The notes below the pieces were generated by a model. It searched no databases, was not told the DNA's origin, and worked only from the letters and a program-made list of their open reading frames with translations. A DNA stretch of 14,440 nt from IMG/VR virus record IMGVR_UViG_2939147180_000003. One strand, written 5' to 3'. Both the position numbers and the translations under genes were made by a program. Of the stretch, positions 2,348-14,440 are shown piece after piece (within the stretch, counting starts at the first letter, position 1; the number at the start of each line of letters is the position of its first letter). Source of the DNA: a virus (Duplodnaviria; Heunggongvirae; Uroviricota; Caudoviricetes).

Positions 2348-3129
2348 TGCGCCTCCCCAAGCACCCAGCGCAGAGCCTCGGCATATTCGCCACTGGCATC
2401 TTCGAGTGCTTTTGTAATTTCTTTGCGGGTTTTCAGGCGCGGCTTTGCATCACCGAGGATCTGACGCTGACGCCGAGCTTTTTCATGGCCCGTGGTGCCG
2501 GCGGTCGCTGTCTCGATCTGCTTGACCTTCTCCCGTTGCTCTTCGGGTTTAAGCGATGCCAACTGACGCGCCTGGGTAACAGTGACCGTTCCGGACTCCA
2601 CTGCATCGCGAACAGCTTGGGTGGCATCCAGCAGTGACAGAGTTGCGCGTACGGTCTGGACACTCACGCCAAACATCAGCGCTAAATCATCCTCATCGTG
2701 CCCGCGCTCCAGCGCATCAGCCATTTTCTTTGCTCGGCCTAGCGGCGTATCTGCCTGGCGGATTTCGTTAGCACTTACCATCGCCTGCGCCATGCGAATG
2801 GCAGAGCCACGTTTAGGGACTCCCGGAACCAGTAACGGTTCTTTGCCCAATTTTGACAGACGCTTATTGGCTTCCAGTGTATGGCGCACACGCTGGCGAC
2901 CATCAACCACACAAGACAGCCCTGTTTCCGGGTCTTTCCAGACGATAATCGGCTCAAGAACGCCCTGGTCCATGATGTTCAGCACCATTGCCTCGCTGAT
3001 AGGCAGGTGGATACGCTCATCGTAAAGCGGGTGCGTTTTGTCGGTAACCAGGTGCAGTTTTTCAGGTTCAAACGCTAAAACGTTCGTTTTGCCACTCGCG
3101 CCATATACCAGCTTTGAGTCTTTAGCCAT
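2344..3129 (-). CDS. ParB/Spo0J-family protein (ParB N-terminal nuclease-like domain plus HTH)
   Basis: 261 aa; ParB-box-like motif VVDGRQRVRH, followed by an HTH-like segment LALMFGVSVQTVRATLSLL and a charged C-terminal region; ATG 3129 overlaps the upstream stop (ATGA). No parA partner in the window. Confidence 0.75.
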   Translation of the reverse strand: MAKDSKLVYGASGKTNVLAFEPEKLHLVTDKTHPLYDERIHLPISEAMVLNIMDQGVLEPIIVWKDPETGLSCVVDGRQRVRHTLEANKRLSKLGKEPLLVPGVPKRGSAIRMAQAMVSANEIRQADTPLGRAKKMADALERGHDEDDLALMFGVSVQTVRATLSLLDATQAVRDAVESGTVTVTQARQLASLKPEEQREKVKQIETATAGTTGHEKARRQRQILGDAKPRLKTRKEITKALEDASGEYAEALRWVLGEAQ

Positions 3130-3428
3130 CAGAGAGCCTCCACGTTACGGAAGCTGGTGGGGCAAATTGCCTTCAAATCGCGCATAGCCTCTAGAACATG
3201 CATATTTGTGCGATTCTTGGTGTGTCGCTCGGTCAGGCGATCACACTCTTTCGCCCATGATTTGACCTCTGCAAGAAGGGCGTCACGTTCGGTGCGCGTC
3301 TGGCGCAGAGCTACATTCGAAACATCGAGGACGGTAGCCAGTTCCTTGATGATTGCTGCCTGTTCTGGTGGCATAGTTTTGGCTATTTCGTACGCCTGTT
3401 TAATCAGTTGTTTTGCTGTCTTAGCCAT
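3129..3428 (-). CDS. Hypothetical protein (99 aa), first gene of the leftward early operon
   Basis: Track ORF 3129..3479 trimmed to ATG at 3428 (MAKTAKQLIKQ...) preceded by GGAGA 7 nt upstream; stop overlaps the ParB-like start. Confidence 0.6.
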   Translation of the reverse strand: MAKTAKQLIKQAYEIAKTMPPEQAAIIKELATVLDVSNVALRQTRTERDALLAEVKSWAKECDRLTERHTKNRTNMHVLEAMRDLKAICPTSFRNVEAL

Positions 3429-3724
3429 CTTTTGTTCTCCATCTGACGCTCTGCAACGCGTAAATTTAGGGTGCAGCAACCCAACCCATGAGAATGGGTG
3501 AATAGCTGGTTAAAATTTCTTGCTGATGGGGGACCGCCACTGCAATGGCGGTACGTTAGTTCTCCACACAACACAGAAGAGCACCTGCGGCCGCAAATCC
3601 GCTCGGGCGGATTGTGTTAGGGCACGTCACTCGGTGGTGCTCTGATGTCTTTTGTAAAAGGGCGAACCAGAAACAATGGGGAAACTGGTGCCGCCAAGAT
3701 GACATAGTCCATCAGACTCACTTG

Positions 3725-3768
3725 ATGTTAGGTTATGCCTAATGTCATGTCAATAGGCTTAGCCTAAT
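3725..3768 (-). promoter_or_regulatory. PL-like leftward promoter overlapped by two operator palindromes (OL-like)
   Basis: On the minus strand TTGACA (3753..3748), 17-nt spacer, TAACAT (3730..3725). Operator-like 17-mers GTTAGGT-TAT-GCCTAAT (3727-3743) and AATAGGC-TTA-GCCTAAT (3752-3768), centres 25 bp apart, related to the perfect palindrome at 5776-5792. Confidence 0.5.
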
Positions 3769-7446: not shown

Positions 7447-8289
7447 ATGAAACTGACTTTACCATTTCCACCGAGCGTAAATAGTTACTGGCGCGCCCCG
7501 AGCAAGGGACCGCTGAAAGGCAGGCATCTGGTAAGCGAGACAGGGCGCAAGTTCCAGCAGGCAGCGAGAGCGGCGATTATTGAGCAACTGCGGGCCGTTC
7601 CCCGGCCATCCTCAGATCTGGCCGAGGTTCACATAAACGTTGTTGAGGGCGCGGGGCTTGAGCTTGATCCTGATGATGATTCACAGGTTCTTAAAGCGAT
7701 TGGTGGCGGTCGCCTGCTTAATATTGTCACCTTTACTAAGTCAGGGACTTACACTCCAACTAAAGGGACGAAAAGAGTGCGGGTGAAAGTTTGGGGAGCG
7801 GGGGGAGGTGGCCAGAATGCTCCAGTTAGTGTGGGCGCATCTGGAGGTTGTGCTGGTGGATTTTCGGAAGGGTTATTTAATATTTCTGATAACGAAACTA
7901 TATCTGTGACGATAGGTACTGGTGGCAGTGCTGTTGCTGCTGGTGTCTCGTCTAAAGGCGGGAATGGTGGTGATACAAGGTTCGGGAGTTTAATCTCAGC
8001 TACTGGAGGGAGTGGTGGCGGGGCTACAGTTCCTGCTGGAGGTATCGGAAGTGGCGGGAACATTTTAAATATTACTGGCGGAATATCTCAAGGTGGTCTG
8101 TATTATGGTTCTGATGCTTTTATTGGCGGGGCTGGAGGATCTGCATTTTCATCAACGGGTGGCAATGGCCACTTCGGTAGTTCTGGCGATGATGGCGGTT
8201 TCCCCGGCTCAGGTGGTGCCGGGGGGAATGGTAACTATTCATCAGGAAAAGGAGCGAATGGTTTAGTTTACCTTGAAGAGTTTTCCTGA
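7447..8289 (+). CDS. Chimeric ORF: RusA-like Holliday-junction resolvase N-terminal region fused to a glycine-rich tail-fibre-type C-terminal domain
   Basis: aa 1-96 RusA-like (LPFPPSVNSYWR, DPDDDSQV, GGGRLLNIVTF); aa 111-280 Gly-rich repeats (VKVWGAGGGG ... GANGLVYLEEFS). Synonymous codon usage shifts from G/C-ending to A/T-ending near nt 7720-7780. ATG 7447 with AAGGGGG upstream. Confidence 0.65.
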   Translation: MKLTLPFPPSVNSYWRAPSKGPLKGRHLVSETGRKFQQAARAAIIEQLRAVPRPSSDLAEVHINVVEGAGLELDPDDDSQVLKAIGGGRLLNIVTFTKSGTYTPTKGTKRVRVKVWGAGGGGQNAPVSVGASGGCAGGFSEGLFNISDNETISVTIGTGGSAVAAGVSSKGGNGGDTRFGSLISATGGSGGGATVPAGGIGSGGNILNITGGISQGGLYYGSDAFIGGAGGSAFSSTGGNGHFGSSGDDGGFPGSGGAGGNGNYSSGKGANGLVYLEEFS

Positions 8290-9359
8290 TTATTTTTGCT
8301 TTGAGCGTCCGCCCTTATTTTTGCTCTAATTTTAATTAGTGGCTTGTCTATTAATATTACACAAACGATCCCAAGTGCAATTGATATTGGGTAGCCTAAT
8401 AAAAAGATGGATAAGCCACGATTTTCACCACCAATAGCAAGCCATGCTAGAAATCCACCAAAATATTGACAAAGAAAAATTGGATAGGCCAGGTCACCAA
8501 ACCACTTGAGTATTTTCTCAAGATGTATGTTTGTCTTTATTTTTAATAATACCAGGGTTGTAAACAATGCTATTACATTATTGGTGTAGTAAAGTATTAT
8601 GTTGTACTGACCTAATGGATTAATTGTATATAAATGCCAATTGGTAATAAAAATCCCGATGCAAATAAATGTTATTAAAAAAGCTTTGTGTGGAGAAAGA
8701 TACATAGCTTTGAACTTTCTATGGGCAAAATAACCCAGAGAACCCATGCTAAAAGGAAGTGTTGCAGCAAGGAATGGGAAATACGCCATATCAAAAGAAT
8801 GGTGTACTACATATACGTAAGCATGATAAAGCAGTGAAAGCAGAATCGACGTAATGGCTGTAAATTTATTTCGGGCTATGAAAAGCCACAATAAAAAATA
8901 ACATGTTATCTCAACACCCACTGACCATGATGATGTGACTATTCTGAATCTATTACCATCAATAGCAAAGTGATAAATGGATGAAAAGGCACCGAATGGA
9001 TTTGCTACAGCATTATCAGAAAGGAAAGCCCAGGGGAAGATTAAGAGGTTTCCTAATAAATCTCCAGGTAAGAAATTGCCTGTCCAGTTTGAGTGGAATT
9101 CCTTTGCGGATGGAATTAATTTTATAATAAGAAAGCCCATGACGAGAAAAAATATATATGCCGGGAATAACCTCAGTATTCTATTTTTCCAAAACATAGA
9201 GAAGTTGAACTTGTATGTTTCATGCAAAATGTATGTTATTAAAAAACCACTAATAACATAGAAGCAATTCACTGCAAAGTTGCCAAGTGCAGGTATGCGA
9301 GCCGTTAAGTGAAAAGCAATGACGCACGATGCCAAAAAAAACCTTATTAGGCCAAGCAT
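8268..9359 (-). CDS. Acyltransferase family 3 integral membrane protein (O-antigen / polysaccharide O-acetyltransferase-like)
   Basis: 363 aa, about 10 hydrophobic segments, AT-rich coding sequence; resembles phage Oac/OafA-type acyltransferases. Start ATG 9359 overlaps the stop of the upstream small ORF; 3' end overlaps the convergent 7447..8289 ORF by 22 bp. Confidence 0.8.
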   Translation of the reverse strand: MLGLIRFFLASCVIAFHLTARIPALGNFAVNCFYVISGFLITYILHETYKFNFSMFWKNRILRLFPAYIFFLVMGFLIIKLIPSAKEFHSNWTGNFLPGDLLGNLLIFPWAFLSDNAVANPFGAFSSIYHFAIDGNRFRIVTSSWSVGVEITCYFLLWLFIARNKFTAITSILLSLLYHAYVYVVHHSFDMAYFPFLAATLPFSMGSLGYFAHRKFKAMYLSPHKAFLITFICIGIFITNWHLYTINPLGQYNIILYYTNNVIALFTTLVLLKIKTNIHLEKILKWFGDLAYPIFLCQYFGGFLAWLAIGGENRGLSIFLLGYPISIALGIVCVILIDKPLIKIRAKIRADAQSKNNQENSSR

Positions 9360-9622: not shown

Positions 9623-9723
9623 TCTCTTATTTAACCGTTTAAACACGTAAGGCGATGTTAGCCCTGAAGGGGCGGGGCGTCAATCTTAATTGCTTCATTG
9701 AAAAGATGAAGACAGGAACAGGT

Positions 9724-11718
9724 ATGGACAAAAGATATAATACCGGCAATCCAAGACCTTCAAATAGCATGAAGGATCTGAATGATAACGCCCTGGCGTA
9801 CGATGATTTCCTGAACAGCGAAAGCGATACTTTTATAGATCGTTTTGGTAACGCCCAGGATACGATAATTGGGGCTACTAAAAAAATGGCAGCTGCTACC
9901 GACGCTGTTATTGATGAAGCCCGCCAAAACCTGATCCCTCTCAGCCGGCAGTACATGACGCTGGCGGCGGCGCAGGCGGATATTGCGAATATTCCGGCAG
10001 GTTCAACAACCTATGTCCGCAGTCAGGACGGAAGCTCTCTGGCCGATGAGTATATCAACCTCGCTGGAACGCTGCAGCCAACCGGACGGCGGATGGTTCG
10101 TGACGACTACGCATACCAGGTATCGCCAGACAGCGTGACCCTGGCAGCATATGATCCGGAGACTTCCCGCGTGGCTCCATTTTTAAATACAAGCGGCAGA
10201 TTAATTCAAATCGGTCCTGACGGAAAATATTACGAACTTTTAACCCAACAAGAATCCGAACTCTATGCGCTGGGCCGGGAGGGTTCTATACCGCAGTTTA
10301 TTGGCGGTGAAAAAGTGTGGCGGATGACGGTTGATTCAACCACAAACCAGATCGTTGAAGCTTATACGGTTGGTGGGAAGCACTGGATTTACTCAGACGG
10401 TGGCCTGGTAGCTGTTAATAACGGAAATGGCGGTGGTGGTGGCGACGATGATGCCAACCAGCTCCCTGAGTATGGACTTCATTTGTCAGGGTCTACTGTG
10501 TACCCCTACTCAGAGACAGTGCCTGTATGTTTTATCTTTGTGACTGCTGGGCAATCCAACGCTCGAGGATATTGTCCTGACGCCGATCAAACCATTGTCG
10601 CAGCAACGCCGATATATCCTGATAACGCTTTCATGCTCAGCGGCGGGGTTAGGCGTACAGGGACACGCAGCACTACTCTGGTGCCACTGGTTGAGGCAGT
10701 AAGTGGGACAGATAAAGAAACGGCCGCAAGCGGCCTCGCGAACACCTTCATTCGCGATATGGCTGCAGCTACCGGAATCATGCCGCGCACGCTATCAATC
10801 GTATGTGCGCAGTCTGGTCAGGCTTACGAGTACCAGAAACGGGGTAACCAGGTATATCAGTATCTGCTCGATTCAATCGAAGACTGCGTAACGGCCTGTA
10901 AAGCACGCGGCTGGCTGCCGATTGTTCTCTGCGTTGACTGGATGCAGGGAGAGTCCGACGAGGACTGGTCAGGATTACGAGAAGGAATGTATGAATCACG
11001 GATGAGGCAGTACCAGAGACAAATCACCAGCGACATCATCGCAAGAACGGGTCAAAACGAACCGCCGATTATCGCCATTACCCAGCTGGGGTATGTCAAT
11101 GACGGGCATGGTGCATTTACAGGCCAGTACGCGCGACTGGCGTCGACGCGATTGCACGGAAAAGAGCAATTCAGGCTGGTCAATAGTTTGTACCAGTACG
11201 ATTTTATTTCAGACGGTCTGCACTTGACGTGTGCGGGCCAGAACCGGCGCGGAGCAGCTGTGGCGAGAGCGCTTCTCCAGGAGTGGTTTACGAGCGGCTG
11301 GTCAGGGATGGTTCCGACCAGTTTCGTGTGGAACTCACCCACGCAGATACAAATCAATGTCCCAGCGTATACGAACCTGGTGCTGGACACGACTACGATC
11401 AACACCTCCGGTCTGGCCAATTACGGCTTTAGCTACACGGATGAGACTGGTGCTCCACCTGCTATATCGAGCATCGCGATCAGCTCGGACGGCAAGGGCG
11501 TGCTGATTAACCTGGCGACCGCCCCCTCTGGACGTTTTGGGCGCGTTTCCTATGCGACAGCAGAAAACCCACTTCAGAGCGGCGCATCTGTAAAACCTTC
11601 CGGGCGGACTCTTGGTGCAAGAGGGTGTGTTCGATCTTCCGCTGGAATCATATGGGTGTATGACACATCCGTGACTCTTTACGACTGGCTCCCCGCTTTT
11701 CGTATTAACGTTTTCTGA
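9724..11718 (+). CDS. Tail-fibre/tailspike-like protein with central SGNH-type (sialate O-acetylesterase-like) hydrolase domain
   Basis: Track ORF 9655..11718; likely start ATG 9724 (AGGAACAGGT upstream). GQSN block at aa 276-279 (nt 10549-10560, FIFVTAGQSNARG) and DGLH block at aa 497-500 (nt 11212-11223); Gly-rich linker NNGNGGGGGDDD before the esterase domain. Tail-fibre role inferred from context. Confidence 0.7.
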   Translation: MDKRYNTGNPRPSNSMKDLNDNALAYDDFLNSESDTFIDRFGNAQDTIIGATKKMAAATDAVIDEARQNLIPLSRQYMTLAAAQADIANIPAGSTTYVRSQDGSSLADEYINLAGTLQPTGRRMVRDDYAYQVSPDSVTLAAYDPETSRVAPFLNTSGRLIQIGPDGKYYELLTQQESELYALGREGSIPQFIGGEKVWRMTVDSTTNQIVEAYTVGGKHWIYSDGGLVAVNNGNGGGGGDDDANQLPEYGLHLSGSTVYPYSETVPVCFIFVTAGQSNARGYCPDADQTIVAATPIYPDNAFMLSGGVRRTGTRSTTLVPLVEAVSGTDKETAASGLANTFIRDMAAATGIMPRTLSIVCAQSGQAYEYQKRGNQVYQYLLDSIEDCVTACKARGWLPIVLCVDWMQGESDEDWSGLREGMYESRMRQYQRQITSDIIARTGQNEPPIIAITQLGYVNDGHGAFTGQYARLASTRLHGKEQFRLVNSLYQYDFISDGLHLTCAGQNRRGAAVARALLQEWFTSGWSGMVPTSFVWNSPTQIQINVPAYTNLVLDTTTINTSGLANYGFSYTDETGAPPAISSIAISSDGKGVLINLATAPSGRFGRVSYATAENPLQSGASVKPSGRTLGARGCVRSSAGIIWVYDTSVTLYDWLPAFRINVF

Positions 11719-12528: not shown

Positions 12529-12721
12529 AATTTGCCGAATGCATCCGAGTCGGTCCGCAGCGATGGAGCAGGAGAGAGTCGGCGGCCGCCGCCGGATAAT
12601 GACTGAAGAAGTGGTGGAGCGGTGCCGCAGAATGCTGGAGAACGGCGCTACCCGGCAGCAGGTGGCTGATGTGACAGGCGTGGACGTGAAAACAATCTAC
12701 AAGTACCTCCCGGCGACTTGA
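12509..12721 (+). pseudogene. Remnant of a Hin/Gin/Pin-type serine DNA invertase (C-terminal HTH fragment only)
   Basis: AAMEQERVGGRRRIMTEEVVERCRRMLENGATRQQVADVTGVDVKTIYKYLPAT resembles the invertase C-terminus (GRIGGRRPKLT ... RQQ.A...GV..T.Y+Y.PA) with an apparent internal deletion; the resolvase catalytic domain is absent. Confidence 0.5.
12662..12717 (+). repeat. Direct repeat copy 1 (invertase 3' end, about 55 bp)
   Basis: TGGCTGATGTGACAGGCGTGGACGTGAAAACAATCTACAAGTACCTCCC; related copies at 13241-13292 and 13449-13505. Confidence 0.6.
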
Positions 12722-12798: not shown

Positions 12799-13221
12799 TT
12801 GTTCGTGAACGGTAAGAAAACAATAAGTTTTGAGCAATTTTTAACTATTAACAGCAATCTTGTTTCCATCTCAGATACATGGGCTGACTTGTGGGCGTTA
12901 ATTTTTCACACGGGTTTAAGCGCTGGAAGGCTGCTGAGTATTCGATATGATGATATTGATGGTGACTTGATACTGATACGAAAACAGGGTCACCTGAAGG
13001 AGCTACGTGTTAAATCAACCCCTCCAGTGGAGGGGATCATTGCTCGTAGAAGAGAACGCTATCCAGAAGATGTTTTTTTATTTCAGAGCCATTCTAACCG
13101 TGTGAAGTACCAATGCCGGCCGGTCACTATAATTGCTTTCAACGCCGCTTTACGTCGCGCCGCTAGATCATTACCAGACGTTAACGTAAGCAGTAGTAGC
13201 GCGAGAAACATACCGGACTAA
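12799..13221 (+). pseudogene. Tyrosine-recombinase-like fragment (FimB/FimE-like core, truncated at both ends)
   Basis: No ATG anywhere in frame (TTG/GTG only); ALIFHTGLSAGRLLSIRYDDIDGDLILIRKQG resembles the box-I region of small tyrosine recombinases; the HxLRH and Tyr-containing C-terminal region are missing. Followed in frame after one stop by a copy of the invertase-3' repeat. Confidence 0.35.
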
Positions 13222-13505: not shown

Positions 13506-13841
13506 GGGCAATGACCATGAATTTGGGTCTATACCATCCCAATTCATATATTCTTTGTAAGTCTATGAAATATAGAGCAAAGTATTCTGTTCGAAATGAA
13601 CCATATGGAATAGCCAAAGGCTAAAATGCCCAGAGTAAAAACAACAATCAGCAAGTCCGTCTGTGACATCTTATATCCATTTTGCAGTAGCAGGTTTTGA
13701 GAAAAGATAGTTCATAGTTGGCACATAGACAACATAATCACTAAGTGAAACCAATATCAGAGGCTAAAAGGTGACTGGTTTCCTCCTCAGTGTTCCTGAT
13801 TGATAGCTGGAACCTGTATTGATCAGATCTCTTAATGAATC

Positions 13842-13861
13842 TACTGTATATAAAAACAGTA
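13842..13861. promoter_or_regulatory. LexA box (SOS operator)
   Basis: TACTGTATATAAAAACAGTA: CTGT-N8-ACAG with AT-rich spacer, full match to the LexA consensus and, as I recall, identical to the E. coli umuDC operator. Lies 18 nt upstream of ATG 13880, just before GGGAGGTG. Confidence 0.8.
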
Positions 13862-13879: not shown

Positions 13880-14038
13880 ATGCCGCGAAACTCAGATATC
13901 GAAATAGCCTGGCGTCAGGCAATTGTCATTGAGCCTAATGGCCGTCGCACCGTGACAACGTCCGGTTTTATCCGGGAACTCGCAAAAGTTAACTGGATAT
14001 GGTCACCGCGCCAGGCTAACCAGTGGATAGAGCACTGA
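13880..14038 (+). CDS. Small protein (52 aa) immediately downstream of the LexA box
   Basis: Track ORF 13835..14038 trimmed to ATG 13880 with GGGAGGTG 5 nt upstream; MPRNSDIEIAWRQAIVIEPNGRRTVTTSGFIRELAKVNWIWSPRQANQWIEH; no family recognised. Confidence 0.5.
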   Translation: MPRNSDIEIAWRQAIVIEPNGRRTVTTSGFIRELAKVNWIWSPRQANQWIEH

Positions 14039-14047
14039 CATTCCGGG

Positions 14048-14440
14048 ATGTCTCAACGCAGGAAGGCGATGAGCTCACGTTCCAGTTATACAACCCAAAC
14101 GGAGGGCTATAACGTGGGATTTCCGTCGCCAGCTGCTGACTATGTTGAACGGCGTCTGACCGTTGATTCACTCTGCGGTACCGGCCCCAATACTCGGATA
14201 GTACAAACAGAAACCGGCTATGCCGTAGTGGATTGCTTCGTAAAACCAAAGCAAGGAGATACCGTTTTAATTCAATACGGCGGCGGCACTGATTTTGCAA
14301 AAATTATGGGCCGGGCATTTATTACACGAGACGGTGAAGCGTTGGAAGGTGAGGCCCTGGATGATGTTACAGTTGTCGGGGTAGTGACATTCGTTATCAA
14401 TCGGATAGGGAAGGATGATGATGATTATCCAGTAATATGA
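14048..14440 (+). CDS. UmuD-like (peptidase S24 fold) protein, apparently lacking the Ser nucleophile motif
   Basis: GFPSPAADYVERR at aa 24-36 matches the UmuD region around the Cys24-Gly25 cleavage site; C-terminal DDVTVVGVVTFVINRI resembles the UmuD C-terminal strand; TGYAV occupies the place of SGDSM. Alternative start ATG 14069. Stop TGA is the last codon of the window and overlaps an ATG (ATATGA). Confidence 0.65.
   Translation: MSQRRKAMSSRSSYTTQTEGYNVGFPSPAADYVERRLTVDSLCGTGPNTRIVQTETGYAVVDCFVKPKQGDTVLIQYGGGTDFAKIMGRAFITRDGEALEGEALDDVTVVGVVTFVINRIGKDDDDYPVI

Follow-up and report, generated by a model that had tools for sequence, protein, structure and literature searches.

A short phage UmuD′ homologue, predicted to lack the S24 catalytic loop, encoded behind a LexA box at the end of an Escherichia coli prophage

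Background

Stand-alone, pre-processed UmuD′ homologues of phages, typified by HumD of phage P1, have been known since 1999. The P1 genome record notes that HumD 'functionally complements E. coli UmuD′', and the protein reportedly complements UmuD′ in SOS mutagenesis and binds both UmuC and RecA filaments. Here we describe a shorter relative, gene B, which occupies the end of a 14,440-nucleotide (nt) stretch of tailed-phage DNA (IMG/VR record IMGVR_UViG_2939147180_000003, hereafter the window), behind a LexA box and the remnant of a second small gene, A. The general type, a stand-alone, LexA-controlled, pre-processed UmuD′ homologue of temperate phages, is already known and the family is catalogued in PHROGs. 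In the literature, however, we found no description of the widespread short form lacking the catalytic loop and Lys, of its place outside the curated HumD, UmuD and Pfam S24 models, or of its usual operon with a conserved winged-helix gene.

The described systems closest to gene B are the HumD-type proteins of P1 (HumD), N15 (gp26), phiKO2 (gp23), HK140 (gp28) and HK639 (gp28), which are 127–132 residues long and, like B, start at MGFPSPA. Their C-termini read FDDCPV(I/L/M) overall (FDDCPVI in P1, FDDCPVL in N15 gp26), with FDDYPLK in HK140, and may be compared with DDDDYPVI in B. As with B, their genes stand alone without umuC, directly behind a LexA box; we found this box in N15, and such sites are annotated in P1 and phiKO2. 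In lambdoid and N15-like phages the gene lies in the slot right after the tail-fibre gene, as B does, by att/int or par, and HumD-type genes are often opposite a dinI homologue.

Compared with E. coli UmuD and UmuD′, B has the same β-fold, an identical GFPSPAADYVE arm and the same regulation by LexA. It differs from UmuD in lacking the 24-residue N-terminal arm, the Cys-Gly site, the Ser60 loop and Lys97, in being phage-borne without a downstream umuC, and in not keeping the residues that contact the RecA groove.

Start and reading frame of gene B

The gene and its ribosome-binding site are as follows.

14114–14440, + strand: gene B, 108 codons from GTG plus TGA; a short, HumD-like, pre-processed UmuD′ homologue
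14101–14106, + strand: Shine-Dalgarno sequence GGAGGG of gene B, 7–8 nt before GTG 14114 and within the NPNGG codons of gene A

An initial annotation of the window, made without database searches, had placed a UmuD-like gene at 14048–14440. That open reading frame (ORF) does exist on the + strand, since the ATG at 14048 opens an uninterrupted frame of 130 codons, but its upstream codons are not in a conserved frame and the true start is GTG 14114. Relatives begin at M/V-GFPSPA, preceded at a distance of 8 nt by GGAGG. Species-level genome loci encoding B number 166, and locus counts here and below rest on the 80 that were fetched; in 77 of these 80, all from other species, the start is the ATG of MGFPSPA, while the window has GTG. 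Where gene A is intact at 79 residues, as in Klebsiella, E. coli MIN9 and phage vB_EcoS-733R5, its TAA stop lies one or two bases before GTG-GGN-TTY-CC. This spacer measures 1 nt in two of the aligned sequences and 2 nt in the other two, which rules out a conserved frame shared by the ATG at 14048 and the GFPSPA codons.

The first 22 codons of the longer frame (14048–14113) overlap the conserved C-terminus of gene A in a different frame, and substitutions within 14040–14112 are nearly all synonymous in the frame of A. The Shine-Dalgarno sequence is unchanged in all four aligned sequences. In phage mEp390 the B-frame ORF opens at the ATG of MGFPSPA, and no other start codon lies between this ATG and the stop before it. 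Homologue starts, spacer and Shine-Dalgarno sequence therefore together place the gene at 14114–14440, encoding 108 residues with the 'Val' as initiator. Gene B is thus predicted to start exactly at the residue equivalent to UmuD Gly25, the N-terminus of processed UmuD′. Translation opens at this Gly-equivalent position and there is no N-terminal segment followed by an Ala/Cys-Gly scissile bond. What had been read as Val-Gly replacing the Cys-Gly of the cleavage site is an initiation codon, and the protein has no cleavage site at all.

Nor does the 3′ end of the gene, ATATGA, represent umuD–umuC coupling as first suggested. In E. coli HS, whose chromosome carries this locus, the ATG within it opens an ORF of only 14 codons, followed by attR and the host gene yodB. 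A tblastn search of flanks of about 4 kb, using a hand-entered E. coli UmuC query and no positive control, found no UmuC in 79 of the 80 loci; the match in the remaining locus is a 33-residue fragment. B is accordingly not part of a umuC operon, as the Pol V subunit UmuD is.

Two observations touch on how B is annotated elsewhere. In E. coli MIN9 (locus L002) it is represented by a 58-residue fragment only, although the full 108-codon, GTG-started gene is present at 3423–3749. The database entries P0166 (187 residues) and P0217 (160 residues) are fusions of A and B that look like frameshifted copies.

Fold and catalytic residues

Four elements of the protein bear on its relationship to UmuD.

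14117–14149, + strand: arm motif GFPSPAADYVE, identical in 11 of 11 residues to E. coli UmuD residues 25–35; the most conserved part of the family
14210–14227, + strand: site of the deleted catalytic loop; a tight turn, E33-T34-G35, links strands TRIVQ and GYAVVD where UmuD has S57-GDSMIDGGISD-G69
14297–14302, + strand: A62-K63; Ala62 aligns with the UmuD general base Lys97, and Lys63 with Lys98
14414–14437, + strand: C-terminal tail DDDDYPVI, an acidic run plus P-x-I; P106 invariant; absent from UmuD

The arm signature had been recognised from the outset and is borne out in full. G2, F3, S5, P6 and A7 never vary among 29 diverse members of the family, and P4 and D9 hardly do. Other conserved elements across diverse members are the DGE-x-x-EG turn (G74, G79), G89 and the C-terminal Pro106. 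Profile comparison of the family with UmuD using hhalign gives a probability of 98.3% (E = 2e-14). The AlphaFold model of B, with a mean predicted local distance difference test score of 74.7 and 80–89 in the core, finds UmuD′ structures (1ay9/1umu) as its top PDB matches with Foldseek, at a template modelling (TM) score of 0.60, followed by the C-terminal domains of LexA, lambda CI and 186 CI. The fold is thus that of the S24 β-barrel and, given both the hhalign and the structural result, the similarity to UmuD is not due to chance. Within PHROGs, B falls in phrog_3469, 'UmuD-like protein' (E = 1e-49); phrog_811, of the same name, points the same way.

The catalytic residues are another matter. 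The stretch T-G-Y-A-V, encoded by ACC GGC TAT GCC GTA at 14213–14227, was initially taken to replace the SGDSM nucleophile motif. It is indeed there, and without Ser, but comparison shows the loop to be deleted rather than substituted. When an alignment of 29 family members is compared with E. coli UmuD by hhalign, an 11-residue gap lies opposite G58–D68 and YAVVD falls under LLIVD. A multiple alignment with UmuD′ and six HumD-type proteins contains the same deletion, and the AlphaFold model fits it, strand 27–31 being joined to strand 35–40 by a tight turn. HMMER offers an alternative in which G-Y-A is placed under G-D-S (Ala37 under Ser60) before a 12-residue gap, again without Ser; neither alignment provides a Ser nucleophile in a loop of the G-D-S-M type. 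At the position of the general base, UmuD Lys97, B has Ala62, although a register shift of one residue is not fully excludable from the alignment. The adjacent K63 is not conserved, being T, V, F, R or I in other members.

Overall, no alignment sets a Ser or Lys of B at the catalytic positions, and a Pfam search produces no match to any family, Peptidase_S24 (PF00717) included, even at E ≤ 10. B thus appears to have neither an identifiable Ser/Lys catalytic apparatus nor a scissile bond, as judged by sequence comparison, and self-cleavage would be neither possible nor needed. The original proposal of a non-processing S24-fold protein was therefore right in substance, with a UmuD′-like fold predicted, the loop gone and Ala in place of Lys97.

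A parallel is provided by the C-terminal domain of phage 186 CI, an S24-like barrel that serves as an interaction module and, like B, has no Ser/Lys dyad (2fkd/2fjr, TM scores 0.52–0.53). The likeness is one of fold only, with a weak E-value (0.04), and B differs in being a single domain with the UmuD′ arm. In a separate case, the 141-residue metagenomic representative P0137, a UmuD-like N-terminal arm (FIRPAELREI..LFSDSMQC-GFTSPAADY) is fused to a short, Ser-less core of the B type. It may be a recombinant at the common GFPSPAADY motif or an assembly chimera.

Comparison with HumD-type proteins

The closest characterised relative of B is P1 HumD, with which it aligns end to end (hhalign probability 99.2%, E = 3.5e-19). 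The proteins nevertheless differ in several respects: B has lost the whole Ser/Thr loop, a second segment in its C-terminal half is shortened and, unlike the HumD type, it has Ala in the Lys97 column. Again unlike B, P1 HumD and HK140 gp28 match PF00717, scoring 36.1 and 28.4 bits against a cut-off of 23.3.

Replacements at the catalytic positions are already visible among the longer proteins. The nucleophile column contains Ser in P1 and Thr in N15, phiKO2, HK140, HK639 and APC_JM3.2, and the Lys position is Met in HK639, the relative of HK139. Constraint on the dyad therefore already seems relaxed in proteins that are made pre-cleaved, and loss of the dyad in B would fit such relaxation in pre-processed homologues. 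The B family may be regarded as the extreme case of the HumD type, sharing its ends and its genomic slot but with the catalytic loop, and about ten residues besides, predicted to have been removed. The two forms also replace each other. HK140 combines gene A with a long HumD (222 bits to the NCBIfam HumD model) and mEp390 combines a gene A about 80% identical to it with a short B (35 bits), so that long and short forms have been exchanged within one module, arguing for equivalent roles.

The LexA box and gene A

Upstream of gene B lie three further features.

13844–13859, + strand: LexA (SOS) box CTGTATATAAAAACAG, 21 nt upstream of the gene A start
13819–13847, + strand: candidate sigma-70 promoter, TTGATC (13819–13824), 17 nt, TACTGT (13842–13847); weak, read by eye
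13880–14112, + strand: gene A remnant (pseudogene) with a 7-nt deletion (ATGTGAC) at 14036/14037; ancestral stop TAA at 14110–14112

The box is the sole match to CTGT-N8-ACAG in the window, where 0.13 would be expected by chance. An exact box lies upstream in 71 of the 80 loci, at 270–291 nt before B in almost all of those that contain A and at 33–40 nt in most of those that do not; it is also present in phages 733R5, mEp390, Midgardsormr38 and phiES15. The −10 element of the candidate promoter overlaps the box; a simple consensus scan for promoters reported none there.

Gene A lies directly upstream of B in 61 of the 80 loci, the distance from its stop to the start of B being −1 to +3 nt, and B occurs without it in about 19. 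This variable spacing, together with the Shine-Dalgarno sequence of B itself, led us to reject a programmed frameshift or read-through joining the two genes. When intact, A almost always encodes 79 residues. In the window the deletion brings in a stop at 14036–14038, after codon 52, and the Prokaryotic Genome Annotation Pipeline (PGAP) likewise flags a frameshift; a window-specific CGC-to-CTC (Arg-to-Leu) change lies further on, in the out-of-frame part. Genes A and B, in that order, make up a phage accessory ('moron') operon that is controlled by the LexA box and situated between the tail-fibre region and attR.

The family of A (P0271–P0371) is widely named 'DNA polymerase V' in RefSeq and UniRef. 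Its secondary structure elements follow the winged-helix order α1-β1-α2-α3-β2-β3, it has no Pfam or NCBIfam matches, and hhalign detects no relationship to UmuD or LexA (probability 0.1%). With a winged-helix fold and no homology to UmuC or UmuD the name is unsupported, and it appears to have been carried over from the neighbouring UmuD-like gene. Just before the A/B junction (14078–14112, in the ancestral frame) TFQLY plus six residues resembles the β-clamp motif of UmuD, TFPLF plus six residues before Cys24-Gly25. Homology of the A C-terminus to the UmuD arm was considered and rejected: hhalign aligns only four columns, at 0.1%, and the motif is absent from A of the mEp390/HK140 type.

Gene A can be overlooked or displaced. 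The mEp390 record (L007) has an unannotated 79-residue homologue at 2762–3001, whose end overlaps the UmuD-like gene in TGATG, and annotates instead a 42-residue coding sequence (CDS) on the other strand. In Klebsiella pneumoniae strain 176 (L003) a group II intron (ltrA at 1442–2929) sits between the LexA box (1061–1076) and gene A (3002); this sequence, CP125156.1, is listed in PLSDB as 'plasmid unnamed2', yet at 5.37 Mb it is evidently the chromosome. In mEp390, HK140 and phiKO2 (L007, L094 and L095) a dinI homologue is divergent from the LexA-box region of the A/HumD-like genes. Together, dinI and the A/HumD-like genes amount to a small SOS island, flanked by the tail-fibre gene on one side and by att/int or par on the other.

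Distribution and prophage setting

The B family comprises 331 clusters at 90% identity and, at 50% identity, 308 representatives with E ≤ 0.001. It is carried by 63 phage records, from phages of Klebsiella, Enterobacter, Escherichia, Erwinia, Cronobacter and Pantoea. The frame of B is intact in 78 of the 80 loci, 77 of these encoding 103–110 residues. Pairwise ratios of nonsynonymous to synonymous substitution rates within the family are 0.07–0.16, which indicates strong purifying selection. Gene B is a real phage accessory gene, conserved across Enterobacterales and in their temperate phages.

Over its last 741 bases the window matches the chromosome of E. coli HS, and those of at least 14 further E. 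coli genomes, with 100% identity, and all 58 places that match the locus in E. coli are chromosomal. A plasmid origin, as for operons of the imp/muc/rum type, was rejected: besides this chromosomal placing, the few PLSDB matches are mislabelled chromosomes or large prophage-bearing replicons. The region forms the right-hand end of a prophage in E. coli HS, gene B being preceded by terminase, portal, head, baseplate and tail-fibre/esterase genes. On its 3′ side are a 3′ fragment of tRNA-Ser (attR) and then yodB; the tRNA-Ser 3′ part is seen at about 17027–17073 of locus L001. B is the final gene of this decayed prophage, some 330 nt from attR. The left part of the prophage is gone, a truncated integrase adjoining tRNA-Ser. 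At that end (L005; E. coli HS 2080837–2081957) the truncated integrase abuts a truncated hypothetical gene beside tRNA-Ser, and the early region with its immunity, replication and lysis genes is missing.

Proposed role and alternatives

The role that we favour, with a little more than even confidence, is that of a LexA-controlled, born-cleaved, protease-less UmuD′ homologue which acts as HumD and UmuD′ do on host UmuC, and perhaps on RecA. After DNA damage and cleavage of LexA, B would be made at once in its final form. Through its conserved N-terminal arm and β-core it would engage host UmuC, perhaps also RecA, and would supply or tune translesion synthesis of the Pol V type, bypassing the slow RecA*-mediated processing of UmuD. 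The small winged-helix protein A, optional in the family, may be an accessory partner. In the window, with A inactivated, only B would still be expressible.

Several points weigh against this surrogate role. The match of B to the NCBIfam UmuD model NF007621 is limited to the arm and scores 27.3 bits against a cut-off of 110. To the HumD model NF051876 it scores 33.7 bits against a cut-off of 120, matching only with residues 1–27 (residues 23–49 of the 130-residue ORF); mEp390 B scores 35.2 bits and HumD-type proteins 204–222. The B family is therefore a sister of HumD, lying outside it by the NCBI criterion, and B is about 21 residues shorter (104–110 against 127–132). UmuD contacts the groove of the RecA filament through Y52, F94, D91 and E93 (PMC9926225). 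In the hhalign alignment these correspond to R28, T59, G56 and G58 of B, so this interface is not kept. The surrogate role leaves that of gene A unexplained, the HS copy of B, in a prophage remnant with A broken, may itself be on its way to decay, and our literature search found no functional study of the short B family or of gene A.

The loss of the RecA-groove interface and of some 21 residues relative to HumD makes a decoy or dominant-negative role a serious rival, even if we consider it rather doubtful. Here B, which would retain the arm of UmuD′ and its surfaces for dimer or partner contacts but not the catalytic cleft, would sequester UmuC, heterodimerise with UmuD or UmuD′, or block S24 autoproteolysis or access to RecA*, and host SOS mutagenesis would be damped or SOS timing altered to the benefit of the phage. 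It would suit such a role that the most conserved element is the N-terminal arm, corresponding to the P′ side of the UmuD cleavage site, while the enzyme core is degraded and the acidic RecA-contact patch D91/E93 lost. The frequent position of the module beside a divergent homologue of dinI, another RecA* modulator, points the same way. However, for HumD, the closest characterised relative, complementation of UmuD′ is on record rather than inhibition, and the sequence features that suggest a decoy would fit a surrogate equally well.

Related to this is the tentative proposal, to which we also assign a low probability, that B-type proteins are a distinct class of phage SOS effectors, catalytically dead, born-cleaved UmuD′ mimics that hijack or block UmuC, UmuD or RecA*, with or without A. 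One such action would be that of a dominant-negative decoy which, as the prophage is induced, reprogrammes mutagenesis or the timing of the SOS response. B would then be no simple replacement for UmuD′, and the DD(C/Y)PVI tail and gene A would be new interaction elements.

It is unlikely, in our estimation, that B is functionless debris in the E. coli HS genome, intact merely because it has not yet decayed. The state of its surroundings speaks for this: a prophage remnant in which the integrase is truncated and the immunity, replication and lysis regions are absent, and a gene A bearing both the 7-nt deletion and the window-specific Arg-to-Leu change. Against it, at least 15 E. coli genomes carry intact, 100% identical copies of gene B, of its Shine-Dalgarno sequence and of the LexA box, the family as a whole is under strong purifying selection and, with B found without A in about 19 of the 80 species, loss of A need not disable B.

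Improbable, too, is that A and B form a module for SOS-triggered prophage induction, in which one or both would serve under LexA control as an antirepressor, as do 186 Tum, Gifsy GfoA/GftA and N15 AntC. The target of B would be the S24-like C-terminal domain in a phage repressor; alternatively, the winged-helix protein A would act on the immunity region. The Gifsy antirepressors are laid out as LexA-controlled small genes with dinI outside the immunity region (PMC3121763). The A-B operon resembles this in its small LexA-controlled genes outside the immunity region, near tail-fibre genes and beside dinI, and the fold of B also matches the non-cleavable C-terminal domain of 186 CI. More widely, antirepressor operons (186 tum; Gifsy dinI-gfoA-irsA; N15 antC) share with A-B small genes behind a LexA box and an association with dinI, but no sequence relationship to them was detected. 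For Tum, considered as a relative of gene A, the translated sequence bears no resemblance as judged by eye only. Moreover, the A-B phage 733R5, the one phage checked, has a classical CI with HTH_3 and Peptidase_S24 domains (78.8 bits) and, this being of the cleavable type, should need no antirepressor. In N15 the LexA-controlled antirepressor is reported as AntC (PMC3121763), and the HumD-type gene in the slot of B is separate from it. The roughly 19 of 80 loci without A, mostly with the LexA box directly before B, are also hard to accommodate.

The model of the initial annotation, a full-length UmuD-like protein of 130 residues with an uncleavable Val-Gly and a substituted nucleophile, coupled to umuC, could draw on the open frame from ATG 14048, the ATATGA ending and the upstream starts that PGAP gives some relatives, but is refuted by the comparative data, the extension being in a non-conserved frame (spacer of 1 or 2 nt) over the C-terminus of gene A with no umuC downstream.

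Implications

The short family, present in at least 80 species of Enterobacterales as well as the 63 phage records, represents a minimal UmuD′ that keeps the arm, β-core and tail. It may thereby mark the parts of UmuD′ that matter for its non-proteolytic role, and B offers a natural minimal UmuD′ with which to dissect contacts with UmuC and RecA. Gene A is its conserved partner, so far mislabelled 'DNA polymerase V'. If B changes mutagenesis in Klebsiella or E. coli lysogens, this would bear on the evolution of antibiotic resistance under SOS-inducing drugs.

There are consequences for annotation also. The start codon of gene B is often wrongly assigned, gene A is at times overlooked or wrongly named, and 'S24/S26 family peptidase' is a misleading label for a protein without an active site.

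Neighbouring genes

PADLOC produced no matches for A, B or the neighbouring genes, and a role as a component of anti-phage defence was rejected. The ORF of 94 codons at 14016–14300 on the − strand, which overlaps gene B, is most likely a shadow ORF of the conserved + strand gene.

Further upstream, at 9655–11718 on the + strand, the window encodes a 687-residue protein in which Pfam recognises a SASA sialate O-acetylesterase domain (E = 1.8e-11). Adjoining it at 8268–9359 on the − strand is an acyltransferase-family gene; the pair is probably a gene for modification of surface polysaccharide next to a tail fibre or spike of the esterase type. At about 12557–12721 PGAP annotates a truncated helix-turn-helix CDS, in a position occupied in phage 733R5 by a fragment of a Pin-type invertase. 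A 140-residue ORF at 12799–13221 is similar to phage integrases over their middle part (phrog_1, E = 2e-8; phrog_19751, E = 5e-46). These last two look like leftovers of a recombinase and an invertible tail-fibre region.

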